From: Peribolospora baueri
Taxonomy: Eukaryota
NCBI GenBank assembly: GCA_029717555.1
Contig: JAMDHS010000038.1
Location: 1 to 64,000, forward strand
DNA length: 64,000 nt
Direction: 5' to 3'
The position numbers were made by a program, and so were the translations under genes. This document shows, piece after piece, positions 42,129 to 64,000 of this stretch; within the stretch, counting starts at the first letter, position 1, and the number at the start of each line of letters is the position of its first letter. The notes beneath the pieces were generated by a model, which was not told the origin of the DNA, searched no databases, and saw only the letters and a list, made by a program, of their open reading frames with translations.

Positions 42129-42216
42129 TTGAGCTTCAAAGTCGACGTGCTGTTGTTGCCGGTGCTGCTGAATTGCTGTGAGCCGCTGTCGGAACTTGGC
42201 GAGCTCGTGCCCTACC
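42129..42216 (-). repeat. Left copy of a ~90-bp dispersed inverted repeat (gag-like fragment)
   Basis: Reverse complement aligns by hand to 43944..44034 with 9 mismatches in 88 positions plus one 3-nt gap. Confidence 0.85.
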
Positions 42217-43943: not shown

Positions 43944-44135
43944 GGTAGGGCACGAGCTAGCAAAGTTCCGACAGCGGCTCACAGCAATCCAGCAGCGCTA
44001 GCGGTAACAACAACACATCGACTTCGAAGCCCAAGGGACTCGGCCCCCTGCTTCGTCTGCGCCAAGAAGGGACACTCGGCGCAGGACTGTCCCCATGAGA
44101 AGAAGCCAGGGAGTTCCCCGAGGCGTTGCTGTAAA
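43944..44135 (+). mobile_element. Degenerate retroelement gag/ORF1-like remnant with CX2CX4HX4C zinc knuckle
   Basis: 44049..44090 encodes CFVCAKKGHSAQDC, followed by a possible decayed second knuckle (RCCKRGG) and a stop; its upstream part is duplicated in inverted orientation at 42129..42216. Confidence 0.6.
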
Positions 44136-56746: not shown

Positions 56747-58767
56747 ATGGGTACGTCCCTCTCCCTCCTCAACCAACGCTCCCAGTTAGACGGCTTTTTA
56801 CGGGGACCGGCATGTTGCTCCCGCAAGAAAACCGCGAGGAAAGCGGTGCGCGCTCGTCGCCCGCTAAGGGTACGATGACCCCCAGGTCGACGGTCACCCT
56901 CCGGACATCGGCCATGAACGACTACTTTCGCGAGGACGGTGGGTTCCTATTGCAACGCACACTCTTTGGTAGAATCGTCTTTGGCGGCTGACCTGACCCC
57001 AGTCGATGACGTTCTTCTTGCCTTTGTACGTTCAAAATCTTGGACGTTGTCTTGCCCTTGTCCTCATAATGGACCAATGACGCTCGGAAGGCGGTCGCAA
57101 GTATCATGCTACGGAGAATCCGTACGCTCTACCAAGCGACGATCAAGAGGCAGCACGTCTGGACTTGCAGCACCTTGTATGTCCGAGGCTTGCGGGCAGG
57201 GGGGAGTCAGCGAGGGCGGGATTGTGTCGACCCAGGAAGCCTTAGTTTGCCGTCCTTTTTGCTCTCGCCTTCCTCCTCCGCACGCAGATTCATCAGACAC
57301 TTTTAGGCGACAGCAACTACCACCGAAAGGCACCCGTGCGCCAAGTTCTGACGAACGATTCATGTCGCCGTCGAAAAAGGAGTATGTCGTATTGCGCAAG
57401 CCACGAGTGCGTAAACTGCAGCTGAACGTTGATTTGCCGACTCCATTACATCAGTCCTCGACGTGGGCACTGGCTCAGGTATTTGGGCCATCGAAATGGC
57501 AAGCTTATTTTTTCGACGCCCACCTACGCTTCTGTGTCCTATTTGCTCATCGGCGAGTCCCTCCTTACAAACAATCTTCTATTCTTCTGAAATCTCCTTG
57601 CACAGGGGATCGAGTTTCCTATGGCTGAGGTGGTAGGCATGGACGTGGTACCCATCCAGCCTCGCGAAGTGCCTCCGAACGTTACCTTTGAGATTGATGA
57701 CCTCAACAAGCCTTGGGTGAGTGTGTGGTGCATAGCGACTGCCCCTCCGTCGCTCTTTCTTCCTCCTGACGGCCATCTTGTCCTCTTTTGCTCATGTCGT
57801 CTAGACGAGAGAACACGAATCCTATAATCTTGTCCATGCTCGAATGGTATCGTGAGCCGAGACCAACCTCTTTCTTTGCCTTTGTCTGTCGCCTTTTAGC
57901 TTTGGAGCTGAGACGAACCGCACTTCATACCTTTCCTGCCTCAAGCTTTGGCGTGAAGGACTGGTCGGCGTACGTCAACGGTGTAGCCTCCGCAATAGCG
58001 CCAAGAGGTCTCGCCCTTTTTTGCGAGCTCTGGGACTTGCCAGCAGATCCGGAAGAAAGAAAGACCCCTGCCCGGGCAGTCTTGCGTTGGCTTGAGCTGT
58101 TCCGGCGATTGATAGAGGCAAAAGGCCCGTCGGCAGTAGGGGTGAGCACGGCGACCATTGAGCCATTTTGACGTGGACCCCGATTGCTTTCCCCTCATGA
58201 CAATCTTTTCCTACGCCCTTAACAGGGGCGAAAGCTTCTCCCTTTGCTGCAAGAGCATCCAGACCTGTATGATGTCGACTACGAGATCATGGACTGGCCG
58301 TGTGGCCCACACCCAAGCGGTGGGCATCATGACGTACTTTTGTGCGAGCAGGACGTCCTGAGAAGGACTCACCTGAACGTACAACCTTGGCATCTGCAGA
58401 CCCCGTGAAGAATAAAGTAGGGATCTGGGTCGCGAAAGATACGGAGGACATCATACCCCTCGTTCAGTAAGTCTTGTTCGGCGTTGCATGCAATGGATCG
58501 ATGTCGCCGTCTCAACTCACTTTCCCACTCTAACTTGTTCGTAGCCCCCTACTTGTCAAAGACGGCTACGGAGAGGCGTAGTGAGCCGACCTTCATCATT
58601 CCTAAGTGTTGAAGACGTGAGCAGAGACCAACTAACGCCGGTACGATGATAGCATTGCCCACTTCTTTTCGCAAGTGCGGCAGGAAATGTGGGACCAGGA
58701 CAAGACTGTCCATTCATCCATCTTGTGGGCATGGGCCCGCAAGAAGGACACGTCATCGGTTTCGTGA
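56747..58767 (+). CDS. SAM-dependent methyltransferase, LaeA-like / TAM-domain family, multi-exon
   Basis: GRKYHATENPYALPSDDQEAARLDLQHL, RILDVGTGSGIWAIEM|GIEFPMAEVVGMDVVPIQP...NVTFEIDDLNKPW, YNLVHARM, FGVKDW, C-terminal WAWARK; the exons join without frameshift. Confidence 0.9.
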
Positions 58768-59190
58768 ATAGTGTTACAAGATGGCTCGCGCTTCTTCTTC
58801 TTTAACGTGAACAGGCTATTCCTGGAAATCGAAGAAGCGATCGTATTCGGGTTGACTTGACGTTGAAGAATAGGGGCTTTGAGCTTTTGCCCTGTCATGG
58901 TGGCCGTTTTTGACTCCATCACAACTCTTGAGACAAGGTGATACCTTTGTGGATACCGTTATGAGAATTCCTATCAAGTTGTGCTTGTTCTTGCATTATG
59001 ACTGGACTGAGATGTGTCAGCGAAGAGCGATCTGATCTAGCGTCTAGGCGAGCAGCTCACCAGCCAGATTTTGTTAATGAATTGACGGAAGGCTGTGAAT
59101 ACAGCTCAGGTGGGATCATGCCAGGAAGAACCGCTTGCGGGGCGGCGATTTTCCTCATGGAGCGGATACGGCATTATTTCTGGCAAAAAA

Positions 59191-60518
59191 TTACAATGAT
59201 GAACTTACATCCCCACTGAATGGAAAGGCCAACTGTCGCGGTAACCCGCGTCTCCCTATTGCTCTCTCCTCATTGGTCGGACGGATGCACGAGGGGGCAA
59301 GAGGGGGCAAGGTGCATGTGATCATCCGATCCGACCAATGAGGAGAGAGCAATAGGGAGACCAGGTTACCGCGACAGCCCCCAGTTAAAAAGAAAAACAG
59401 AAAAGAAAAATGGGGGAAGCGGAGGGAGAAAAAGAAAATGAAAGGAAAGAGCAGGAAGAATGAGGATAGAAAGTGGATGACGGCGGCGTGCCTGCGTGCG
59501 GTGTCGCCGGTGCGTCTACTACCTCCAGTCAGAGGGAGTTCTTGAGCATAGTGACGCTCGTACCCAGCATCGCGGTGATCGGACGGGGGGTATTGGTGTC
59601 CGTTTTTCCACCATTCTTGATCATAGCGATGCTCAGATGCCAGCGGAGCGAAGTAGGAGCTATGGTGAACCGATGGAGGATGTTCGGCGGATGGGGTGTG
59701 TGCGGAGTTATCGTACGGATACGCGTGGGGCTGCCCGGGCGAAACGCGTGGCTGTTCAGGCGAGGGCTGGTGCGCGTAGACGCTTTGCGGTTGAACTGGG
59801 ACAAACGGTGGAACCGGAGCCTGCGAGGGTGCGTTGCCTTGAGTCACGAGGGGTTGAACGCGTGTCGTGTTGATTAGGGCGAGCATGGCCGCATTTGTGG
59901 CTTTCATTTCCTCGAGAAGCTTGGCGAAAGGATCATCTTCGGCGGTGTTCTCGGTCCGATTGTCCTGCGGCGAATCGGTGGAGGATTCGTCGCAAAGATG
60001 CTGACAACCTGCCGCGGTGGATGACGGAGGTGTCTTCATTAACGAGGTGTTCGCCGTCGGCGCCGACGGCGGAGAGGTTAGCGGCGAATCGGTAGGCTTC
60101 GCTGGTGAGTGAGCAGGGTCATGTTGCGCTTCATCCTGGCGTTCTTGTTGCGCCGACACATCGAACCTCTAGGCGGGGAATTCGTCGGTCACCAGTCCGG
60201 GTCGAGCATTATCAAACTCGCGGATGTACCCAAGACGCTGTGCGCGATGAACCTTGATGAGGCGGCGCCCAAGGTTCGAATATTGGATGGTCGAGGTTGT
60301 TTTGTTGAAAGTGCCATATGACGCGGTGGCAAATCACGAGCCTCATCGATCCTGATGGAGGGAACAAAGTAATAGTCCTGTCCCTCCAGGAGCTTCCTGG
60401 TGCTGAATTGCACAGGGACAGTGCAATGTTGATGAAGTCGGACGACCACGGTGCGATCGGATTTGACAATCACCTTGCCGACGTGATCTCCGGGCAGTCG
60501 ACTAAATGTTTCCGGCAT
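59191..60518 (-). CDS. Orphan hypothetical coding region (ORFs 60518..60189 and 60159..59191; gene structure unresolved)
   Basis: Pro/Ser-rich ORF with helical segment DDPFAKLLEEMKATNAAMLALIN; possible short intron (GTACAT...CTAG) near 60170-60230; no recognisable domain. The 3' part of the ORF runs through a pyrimidine tract and the hairpin and may be non-coding. Confidence 0.4.
59233..59377. repeat. 145-nt long inverted repeat / fold-back
   Basis: 59233-59246 pairs with 59364-59377 (14 bp perfect), 59250-59281 with 59330-59361 (32 bp perfect), 59282-59287 with 59323-59328; the loop contains (GAGGGGGCAA)2. Confidence 0.95.
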
Positions 60519-61229
60519 CGAGGGTCGTGTGGGTGTCGGGAAAAGGCTCCGACGAGGTAGGTCGACTCTGAGGGGCTGTCGGACGGGGATGATGAGGGCA
60601 CCCGTAACAGGAAAGGTTCGTTGACGTCGGTGAGAAGGCGAGCCGTCCTCGATTGATGAAGGAACCAACGGTGGAGAGACTGAGAAGTCGCCGACGACGG
60701 TGGATCAACTCGAGAGGACCCGGAGGGACAGAGGAGGAAAGAACCCTTGACTTGCGTGGTCACAAGAGGCGGAGGTCGAAGATCGGTGCCCGAAGAGAGG
60801 TACCTAGGAAGAAGGGGGTTGCTGACAGGCGGATAGAAGGAGGTCGCCCTTGACTTGTCGAAGACGAGAGGTGAAAGTCGGATAGAGGTCGGTCGTTGGA
60901 CCCAACGCCTTTCTGATCAGATGACTACCTCGCTTGATCAGGTTTTATGAGACGGTCGGGAGCGGCGAGTGCCATGTGAAGGAGATCAGCCGGGTTTAAC
61001 AGCGGCAATGGGATCCAGTGCAGACGTTGCCCTGCACGCAGAAGCAAAGTGAACGGGGGTAAGGTGCGAAGAGAGGTGACACTGTACTCACTGTGCGCCG
61101 ATGGCCACCCTCTTTCGTCGATACCACCCTCGTACGATCGCAGCACGTGCGTTCCATTCAGACCGCGTCGGTCATCTTCTCGCGTTCGCCGCTCCGTCGT
61201 CCCACTTCCCCCTTCCATCCCATACCATC

Positions 61230-62991
61230 ATGCCAGACCCCGTCCCAATTCACGGCAACTTTCGCGGGTACTACTCCAAGCGCAGCGCCGCTGGTAGAGA
61301 CCCGAGGCTGTTGGACGAAAGGGTAGAGATGGTATTGCGGTACCTCTTGACCCGAGCGGCGCGAGGAGAGGAGGCAGAACCTGCGGTGGAGCACTTTGCA
61401 GGTGGATTAAAAGGAGAGGAGGTTGCGGAAGAGACGACATCGGCCTGTAAGGAAAGAAGGGGGAGAAAACGGCGTAGGATCAAACAAAGGGACGAGGGAA
61501 CGACTGCACCCGCCGAGGATCTTCATCCTACATCTGTGCCTGGCCTTGCCCGCACCCGCTCCAGCAAGGAGCGTCTTCGAGAGATTGGAAGAGGGATGCG
61601 AATCCTCGATGTCGGCTGCAACTCGGGTAAGGTTACCGTCGAGATAGGTGAGCCATTTCTGTTTCCTCTGGCCCTGTTTGGGCAATGTCTTCGGGGATGA
61701 ATGCGCGCTATTCGATCCGACTGGCCCGTCAGACTTTGTCCAAATGCTTAACTCAATCCACTCTTCATCACTCGTCTCCATTCGACTCACAGCCCGCACT
61801 CTCAGCCCAGCACACGTCCTTGGCGTCGACATTGATCCCGAACTGATTCGGTTTGCGCACAACCATCTCCGACTCGTCTGGTCGCGCATGAAGCCGGCTC
61901 AAGCTTCATGTTTCGTTTCCGTGACACAGGGTGAAGCGACGGTTGGGGACGAGCGTGGAGGGCGGCGAGAGTCGGGATATCAAGAGAAAGAAGAGACGAA
62001 GAGGGGGCGGCGGAAACGCAAGAGTTCGTCAAGCCGCCGAGGAGGAGAGGAAAAGCCAGAAGACGGCATAAACAGATCTCCGGAGCGGGACACGGCCGCA
62101 GAGGATTACAGAATCGACATGATATCCCTCTATTTTGCGGACGCCGAATACTTCCCGCTCTCGATGCCACGCATGTTCGGTCACCTCCCCTTGCCGTTCA
62201 AACCGCCCCAGCCTCAACTCAGGTCGGAGAAGACAGTCCAACGCTTTTCAGGCGGACAAGCCCATGGCGGAACGACGATGGCGGAGACGACGGCCGCATT
62301 TCCATACAACGTGTCTTTCAAAGCCGCTGATTGGGTCGAGCAACGTCTTCCGGAAGATGACCAGGGATATGACATCGTTCTCGGGTGCGCATCAAGCATC
62401 TGGCCGCTGCCTTTGACTCGGCCGGTCTGCTTGGTATCCGTGGCTTGCTGATATCCTTGCTGACCTTACATCCTTCACGCTCTCTCCCCCACCTGTCACC
62501 AGCCTTTCGCTCACCAAATGGATTCATCTCAATGGACTGGACCAGGGCCTGAAGAGATTTTTCCAGTGCGTTTTCAACGTGCTCAGACCGGGCGGGTTGT
62601 TCATCTTGGAGAGGCAGGAGTGGGCCAGTTATGGACAGGCAAGAAGGATTAGTGCAGTGAGTTTGACGGTGAAGAGCAAAGGATGAACGCGCGTACGCAC
62701 GGGTAATTTACATTGCCGATCCTTTCACACTCGGCCCTCAGGATCTTCGCCGGAACTACGACCGCCTCGAACTACGCCCGGACGACTTCGATCGTACATT
62801 GATCGACGAAGTCGGCTTCTCGGGTTGGGAAAGATTGGGCACTATACCGGGAAGAGGTGGGTTCAGCGGTAGAGACGTCTGTCTGTGGCTCATGACGGTC
62901 GCGTCTGACGTATGGCTTCCGTTTGGCTTTGGCTTGCCCAGGCTTTCGTCGCCCACTAGACGTCTTCATTAAAGGTGCTGAGAAGAATTAA
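61230..62991 (+). CDS. BIN3: Bin3/MePCE (Bmc1-like) RNA methylphosphate-capping methyltransferase
   Basis: HGNFRGYYSKR..DPRL, ILDVGCNSGKVTVEI|A, VLGVDIDPELI, FPYNVSFKAADWV, YDIVLG|LSLTKWIHLNGLDQGLKRFF, LRPGGLFILERQEWASY, LRPDDF, GFRRPL. Confidence 0.93.
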
Positions 62992-63671
62992 ATTGGCCTA
63001 GCTATTCTCCGAGCCAGTGGGCGACACTGCCGTTCGGATGATCCACCATGGCTTTGTCGATCGAAATGATGGACACGGGGGCTGCTCATAGACGGGAATT
63101 TGAGGTGCAGGGTCCGATGAATGGAGACAGTGAAGGTTCGCACCCCTTCTCCTCCACCGGCACCCTTGCCAGCCGAACCGCCATCCGCCTCCGCGATGGG
63201 AGCGCGCGCCATCGCTATAAACAGATTCGAGTACAAATGCAGCAGGGTAGTACGGACTTTAGACATTGTTCTGTTGCGCTCCAGACGCCGTGCGGAGCGC
63301 GATCGTGGTCTTTCGGTTGGGACGGTACCTCGAGCACCACGCGAGTACTGCCCGGATCTTCGTCGGCACGTATGCTTACCTTATCCGCCCCGCTTCGCAG
63401 TGCGCAGCGCGCTGTTCAACAATACGATGCGATGGCGAAGCGATGCGATGGTCCCGTCCGCCTCTCAGTCTCGAACAAAGCTTTCTAAGGCGGGGAAGAC
63501 ATCTGTGCACGGAAGGCCCATGAGACGTCATTGACCACGTAGACGAGACCTTCCTTCACGCTCACGAAGTCACATTATCAACTCCATCGACCATGTGACT
63601 GCTTATCTGGTAATGCGAGTCCGTGCACGTGATACCACTTCTAGGTTCATAGTCGTCGAGGTTTGGCTCGA

Positions 63672-64000
63672 ATGACGCAGCACCTTCAACCTTTAACCTG
63701 CCTAGAGAACGACGACAACGACGACGGTCACGGCAACAAGAGCGAAATCAGACCAATGACGCCCTACCAAGCCCTTCTTGCCCGCGTCCCTTCTGCAAAG
63801 CTTGACCCCGTCACCGGCGAGCCTCATCTCCCCATCCTCTTCCCTCCCCGACAAGCCTCAGCAGGGCGCATTGAGGCTGACGCCATGGAGAGAGGGCGAT
63901 GGTGTTGGTGAGCGGACGGTAGAAAGAAGGCCTTCTGGACGCCATGGCGGACGGCGACGCTGACCGACAGTCCTTCGTCCTTCGTCCTTTCTCCTAGCCA
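63672..64000 (+). CDS. 5' part of a probable GNAT (RimJ/RimL-type) acetyltransferase, truncated by the window end; apparent +1 frameshift
   Basis: DPVTGEPHLP (resembles N-termini I recall from basidiomycete GNATs), then LRLTPWREGD in the +1 frame; intron GTGAGC(63908)...CTAG(63997). Confidence 0.5.

Follow-up and report, generated by a model that had tools for sequence, protein, structure and literature searches.

The 145-nt fold-back at positions 59233-59377 of the window (the whole 64,000-nt stretch of DNA that was analysed) is best explained as one copy of a very-low-copy, non-coding palindromic repeat, a decaying non-autonomous DNA element of MITE-like or foldback type whose ends are TG...CA, and we put the probability of this reading at roughly 0.6. 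The finding is an ordinary one, an unclassified miniature repeat family of a kind that is already familiar. We compared the locus with contigs from four public DNA runs of a single study. Two of them, X1 and X2, come from organism A (0.92 of words) and may be the sample from which the window was assembled, and the other two, X3 (0.33) and X4 (0.30), come from organism B; among recorded RNA runs, none was found to contain the stretch. The fold-back itself is real: the 32-bp perfect stem, the 14-bp outer stem beyond a 3x2 internal loop and the 6-bp inner stem across a 1-nt bulge, which a sequence-only reading of this DNA had described, were all found, each where it had been placed. The parts of the element are as follows.

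59234..59376, no strand: repeat unit, 143 nt, 5'-TGTCGCGG...CCGCGACA-3', with TG...CA ends; other copies match from TGTCGCGG inward and differ before it
59233..59246, no strand: outer stem, left half, 14 nt, 100% complementary to 59364-59377 (repeat search)
59364..59377, no strand: outer stem, right half, partner of 59233-59246
59247..59249, no strand: internal loop between the outer and long stems, left side, CGC, opposite CA at 59362-59363
59250..59281, no strand: long arm, left, 32 nt, 100% complementary to 59330-59361 with 48 nt between the two (repeat search)
59330..59361, no strand: long arm, right, containing CCAAT; G>A at 59357 in organism B
59282..59290, no strand: inner arm, left, C GGATGCAC, pairing in the fold with 59312-59317 and 59323-59328
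59312..59329, no strand: inner arm, right, made up of GTGCAT, a 5-nt extra GTGAT, CATCC and GA (from the fold and the arm alignment)
59291..59311, no strand: loop with the tandem GAGGGGGCAA twice

The inner stem, which lies inside the long one, is continued in the minimum-energy fold by 4 further base pairs across a 2-nt bulge, for a total of about 57 pairs in one stem. Folding bore the hairpin out. As RNA, the 145 nt reach -108.2 kcal/mol, against -48.7 +/- 4.3 for shuffled versions (z -13.9; 0/200 shuffles as good), and as DNA they reach -64.3 kcal/mol (z -14.4; none of 200 shuffles as good). When the left half is compared with the reverse complement of the right half, the differences are CGC/CA, C/GA and the five extra bases GTGAT. 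The two long arms are the sole matches of the 32-mer in the 64-kb window at up to 3 mismatches, with 0.00 expected from shuffles; the 14-mer by itself is within chance (at least 2 matches at up to 2 mismatches in 13 of 100 shuffles) and counts because it adjoins the long stem. A search of the whole window for inverted repeats of at least 20 nt within 3 kb returned the hairpin as the sole compact, perfect pair of complex sequence. One more pair, I11, is 100% complementary as well, a run of CGA/GTC trinucleotides with 512 nt between its arms, and a pair unrelated to the hairpin, 42148-42216 / 43944-44012 (69 nt, 86% complementary, arms 1727 nt apart), looks coding-like and may perhaps represent two facing, diverged gene copies. 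The tandem previously noticed in the loop was recovered by TRF as a 10-nt unit with 2.5 copies at 59287-59311; by eye, the loop resembles the inward sequence of the other copies, which are without this duplication.

The case for a dispersed repeat comes from the contigs. These were aligned to 58000-60800 at 80% likeness, giving 12, 12, 21 and 21 records for X1 to X4, of which 7, 7, 6 and 9, respectively, lie only partly on the stretch; junctions, loose ends, letter differences and indels are counted here among the matches listed. All 30 depth bins at the locus are covered. In X1 and X2, contigs with 0 differences carry the left flank and 23 nt of the left arm, to 59272, and the right arm and right flank, from 59332, and among the contigs listed none spans the whole hairpin. 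The main contig of organism A ends at 59272 and the next begins at 59332, as happens in a k-mer graph when the words of 59243-59361 also occur elsewhere. In X1 and X2, two contigs from each run show unlike flanks ending in TGTCGCGGGA and are then aligned from 59243, and one contig from each run departs from the left arm at 59280, continuing into inward sequence that is related but not the same. Another contig, 209 nt long, has 170 letters that are unmatched in 58000-60800 and then joins the right arm at 59323-59361 with 1 mismatch. Its depth (105.9 in X1, 93.9 in X2) equals that of the main contig (110.8 and 90.8), which assigns it to a single-copy locus of that genome; it is neither an allele nor contamination.

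Contigs that share the arms, carry unlike flanks and stand at single-copy depth thus define a discrete dispersed repeat, and the suggestion of a MITE-like element made in the sequence-only reading gains support, since likeness begins sharply at TGTCGCGG with unlike DNA before it. Arms with other flanks, seen as loose ends and partial contigs at single-copy depth, occur in all four runs. Organism A would hold about one further copy, about two in total, as its four junction contigs are the yield expected of one more palindromic copy. For organism B, the matches listed place three X4 contigs at '59323 before' and further junctions at 59242, 59243, 59281 and 59359; counted from the junction contigs listed, it would have about two further copies and about three in total. 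One X3 contig starts exactly with TGTCGCGGGA, which sets the repeat boundary at that T and the unit at 59234-59376. This agrees with the TG...CA ends that had been pointed out one base inside the fold-back, where TGTCGCG...CGCGACA can be read directly. The inward sequences from both arms of the other copy are related in reverse complement, with CACGCGGGCGCA and CGTGAT in common (by eye), and contigs run 170 and 242 letters inward from an arm without matching the window. The palindrome probably extends further in a longer family member, a reading weakened by the breaking of contigs at repeated words. At the ends, both window arms have T, against GA in two contigs of the other organism-A copy. 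Within the 64-kb window there is no second copy; apart from itself, the hairpin has no blastn-short match above 13 nt there.

Organism B is about 3% diverged from A and carries the element at the same locus, minus most of the left arm and the loop:

59256..59316, no strand: 61 nt missing from organism B; one X3 contig and one X4 contig show the joint 59255->59317

One organism B contig aligns to 58000-59255, with 33 differing letters in 1256 nt (2.6%), and passes directly from 59255 to 59317, with contiguous coordinates, 37 letters beyond and no shared letters at the joint; a second covers 59327-59763, with 14 differing letters in 437 nt (3.2%). Since the element is at the same locus in B, its insertion is older than the A/B split. 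On the right side, B has G>A at 59357, an additional G after 59361 and A>G at 59363, and reads GACGCGGGTTACC, the exact complement of the left GGTAACCCGCGTC, with GCG against CGC (by hand). The 3x2 loop therefore arose in A's lineage, and the ancestral stem was unbroken over at least 49 bp. The 84 nt of the element kept in B show 2 substitutions and 1 one-base indel, which is the rate of the flanks; B's form of the element would measure 85 nt, against 145 nt in A. Three events distinguish the stems of A and B, namely A's CA for GCG, B's G>A at 59357 and B's 61-nt loss, and all three break pairing; no compensatory change was seen among them. Nothing in the two sequences would indicate selection for the fold since the split.

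The surroundings of the element are those of non-coding DNA. The neighbouring features are listed here.

59191..60159, minus strand: orphan ORF, 322 aa, with its tail over the element; the tail translates the pyrimidine tract and the palindrome
57433..57636, plus strand: exon of the upstream methyltransferase gene; Methyltransf_23, E 7.3e-4, 19.7 bits, below the cut-off of 27
59387..59460, plus strand: flanking purine tract, 74 nt, outside the element, 93% purine; TRF reports AAAAAG at 59387-59410

The hairpin indeed overlies the 3' end of the orphan ORF, next to a long purine/pyrimidine tract, as had been noted. The gene on its other side had been called LaeA-like; a plus-strand methyltransferase exon does lie upstream, with a Pfam match below the cut-off, and the more specific name is plausible. 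For the 229 residues of the orphan ORF encoded by 59473-60159 we found no Pfam family and no homologue among proteins of 125-401 aa, and for the ORF no homologue at E <= 0.001 among 1.84 billion representative proteins. In organism B an additional A after 59532 shifts its frame, 113 codons before the stop. The sole frame across the 143-145 nt of the element is thus an unconserved tail that is frameshifted in B, which puts the element in non-coding DNA. No transposase was found in the 28 scanned of the window's 99 ORFs of at least 170 aa, which are ordinary genes instead, and the same scan gave no autonomous partner.

Several further observations were made in this neighbourhood. The segment 59386-59411, in the purine tract to the right of the element, is skipped in the contig alignment as a repeat where reads seem to be cut. 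Two contigs at 59711-59766, one of 47 nt with roughly doubled depth (210 vs 111) and one of 368 nt, share 59728-59766 and then diverge, so that a short piece of the orphan ORF, which is Pro/Gln-rich, is present a second time in organism A, at another place. Downstream of the methyltransferase exons, the 49 nt at 58221-58269 are matched with 5 mismatches by a 29,483-nt contig in X1 and X2, with matching loose ends at 58221 in X3 and X4 and at 58269 in X3; this is a short motif common to another locus. The segment 60162-60800 is rich in indels between A and B and is overlapped by several short contigs; organism B skips 155 nt there (60416->60572) and a further 81 nt (60671->60753), with 16 other letters in place of the latter. 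These indels are accounted for by no tandem or direct repeat, and direct or tandem repeats were not found at 59.4-61.4 kb. The plus-strand ORF 61648-62451 has weak matches to Methyltransf_31 and Methyltransf_25 (E about 0.003, below cut-off). We considered the methyltransferase-like regions at 56-59.2 kb and 60.8-64 kb as possible duplicates and rejected this, as neither tblastn nor blastn gave a match. The gene-poor interval 59000-61000, which holds the element and the orphan ORFs, has a sustained positive GC skew of +0.2 to +0.3.

Taken as a MITE-like or foldback-type element, the hairpin would have the following history. Before the A/B split, it would have inserted into the non-coding gap between the plus-strand methyltransferase gene and the unconserved minus-strand ORF, as an almost perfect palindrome whose stem would have measured 49 bp or more. 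Decay at the neutral rate would have followed, with A gaining the small internal loop and B losing 61 nt of left arm and loop. We infer that the family spread via a transposase acting on the inverted ends, that this element has become immobile, and that its folding is a by-product with no function. The traits by which MITEs are recognized are largely present: it is small and non-coding, its terminal inverted repeats consist of the 14-nt, 32-nt and inner stems, and its dispersed copies have unrelated flanks and a sharp common boundary, with a copy number that is very low.

The target-site duplication is the missing trait, and it bears on how the repeat spread. The sequence-only reading had seen none, and we likewise found by eye no direct repeat of 2-9 bp in the flanks (...GGCCAAC / TGTCG...CGACA / GCCCCCAG); among the differences listed for organism B, none falls in those flank positions. 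The pair GCCAAC/GCCCCC, identical at 4/6 positions, was considered and set aside as a chance likeness reached after trying many lengths, and is unconvincing because it requires two old changes among 12 nt beside arms that remained almost perfect. The missing duplication would favour a dispersal that needed no transposase, for instance through ectopic gene conversion or through capture as filler DNA during break repair, or else an origin of the arms by a one-step local template switch. The very low copy number speaks for the same, as does the sharing of a variant by both ends of a copy (T/T vs GA/GA), which fits arm-to-arm copying. We nevertheless consider such an origin rather unlikely, because the repeat boundary is exactly the palindrome end in both organisms, as fits a mobile unit and not random capture. 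A local template switch is moreover made unnecessary by the other copies in A and B, which carry arms too; for the same reason we rejected a template-switch origin of the left arm in A, which had been considered since B is without that arm at this locus. A fold-back assembly artefact is hardly credible. Chimeric reads can make palindromes, and the lack of a listed contig across the hairpin would allow one here, but the independent X1 and X2 contigs each join an arm to its flank without a difference over fully covered depth bins, both outer stems and the right arm are present in the independent sequence of organism B, and the two sides lead into different unique flanks, unlike an artefactual fold-back.

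Three readings had been offered at the outset, and it is the MITE-like one that the contigs favour. The proposal of a larger mobile element that includes the orphan ORF(s) and ends at the hairpin went unsupported, and we hold it to be very improbable. It could draw on the ORFs to the right being without relatives and on the indel-rich interval at 60.2-60.8 kb between A and B; however, the contigs over 59332-60800 are at single-copy depth (131.5 and 110.7 vs 110.8), one other copy in B (X4) enters unlike DNA on the right at the loose end '59359 behind', there is no second terminus within 59378-64000, and the palindrome is complete in itself. The third reading, a hairpin-RNA or milRNA-like gene, to which a MITE exapted as one may be added, supposes that a read-through stem of about 57 bp is cut by Dicer and that the small RNAs act on complementary transcripts. 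The fold is very stable with few unpaired bases, and the hairpin lies between convergent reading frames, so that read-through could include it. Its single stem has small bulges and no secondary stems, and no loop in the duplex exceeds 20 unpaired bases, which are the structural traits given for milRNAs in a passage of PMC9757828; the hairpin also has a sub-threshold likeness to miRNA precursors, the best being MIR1846 at 30.4 bits (E 0.0018). That resemblance is due to hairpin shape alone, and all 5 Rfam matches lie below the gathering threshold (best 30.4 vs 77.5 bits). Moreover, organism B is minus one arm and the changes between A and B all break pairing, none being compensatory; a complementary target was not found in the 64-kb window, where no other match exceeds 13 nt. 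In the fungal re-analysis, a passage of PMC9757828 treats a dispersed repeat as grounds for exclusion, and RNAi is not universal among smut relatives, Ustilago maydis being without Dicer and Argonaute according to a passage of PMC10512261. Together these points make a small-RNA gene an unlikely explanation.

The MITE-like or foldback-type element can be set beside several known systems. It shares with MITEs its 143-nt non-coding unit, terminal inverted repeats, dispersal with different flanks, proximity to genes and folding into a hairpin. It differs from them in the absence of a target-site duplication, in its copy number of about 2-3 per genome as opposed to tens to thousands, in inverted repeats that fill nearly the whole element, and in an autonomous partner that is not among the scanned ORFs. 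Foldback-type elements (Drosophila FB, Galileo, Tetris), as described in passages of PMC3573991 and PMC4079207, likewise consist nearly entirely of long inverted ends, vary in length and form an unstable palindrome. According to those passages, FB, Galileo and Tetris reach kilobase size, their ends are internally repetitive, their target-site duplications are known, and a P-type transposase belongs to Galileo (PMC3573991, PMC4079207). The arms here, in contrast, are about 60 nt long and not internally repetitive.

Ginger transposons offer another comparison. Passages of PMC2836005 give them TGTNR termini and inverted repeats of 40-270 bp, and report a Ginger2 vestige in Malassezia globosa, a smut relative; the TGTCG ends found here fit TGTNR, and arms of about 60 nt fall within 40-270 bp. 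The target-site duplication of Ginger is 4 bp, CCGG/CCGT, or lies within AT-rich RTATAY, according to the same source. The present element differs in that it has no 4-bp duplication, with CAAC on the left vs GCCC on the right. TG...CA ends are also widespread, occurring in LTRs and in IS3/IS481. A relation to Ginger would be a lead and not a placement.

MITE-derived plant microRNA genes (a passage of PMC8862332) and fungal mi/milRNA loci (a passage of PMC9757828) share with our hairpin a precursor-like size and an almost fully paired, transposon-derived stem-loop. They differ from it in that the hairpin is not kept in the sister organism and has no Rfam family at threshold. We found in the literature no MITE or foldback family of this sort in smut fungi; the passage of PMC9603552 mentions only the use of MITE Tracker. 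None of four short sequence strings from the element was found in print in papers. A metagenome scan with a 22-mer of the arm gave 0 loci, as did viral contigs. The sole match to the terminal pattern, metagenome locus L001, was rejected as a chance 23-nt match in high-GC sequence with no hairpin, and is probably bacterial by composition.

There is a slim chance that the family is something newer, a fungal fold-back element with TG...CA ends, no duplication and arms copied from one another, using a hairpin-templated or integrase-type mechanism undescribed in Ustilaginomycotina, whose transcripts might feed small RNAs. Two oddities stand out, the missing target-site duplication and the matching variants at both ends of each copy, and if the absence of a duplication and the TG...CA ends hold genome-wide, the mechanism of transposition merits attention. 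For annotation the locus carries a caution, as by structure alone such a hairpin would pass as a miRNA-like precursor, and it also breaks k-mer assemblies, contigs having ended inside the arms in all four runs. It is, besides, a clean natural case of palindrome decay, in which an ancestral near-perfect stem acquired a small internal loop in one lineage, and a single 61-nt deletion, with no microhomology, removed an arm and the hairpin loop in the other. For this poorly sampled, smut-related fungus, the element adds an unclassified miniature inverted-repeat family to a sparse transposon catalogue.
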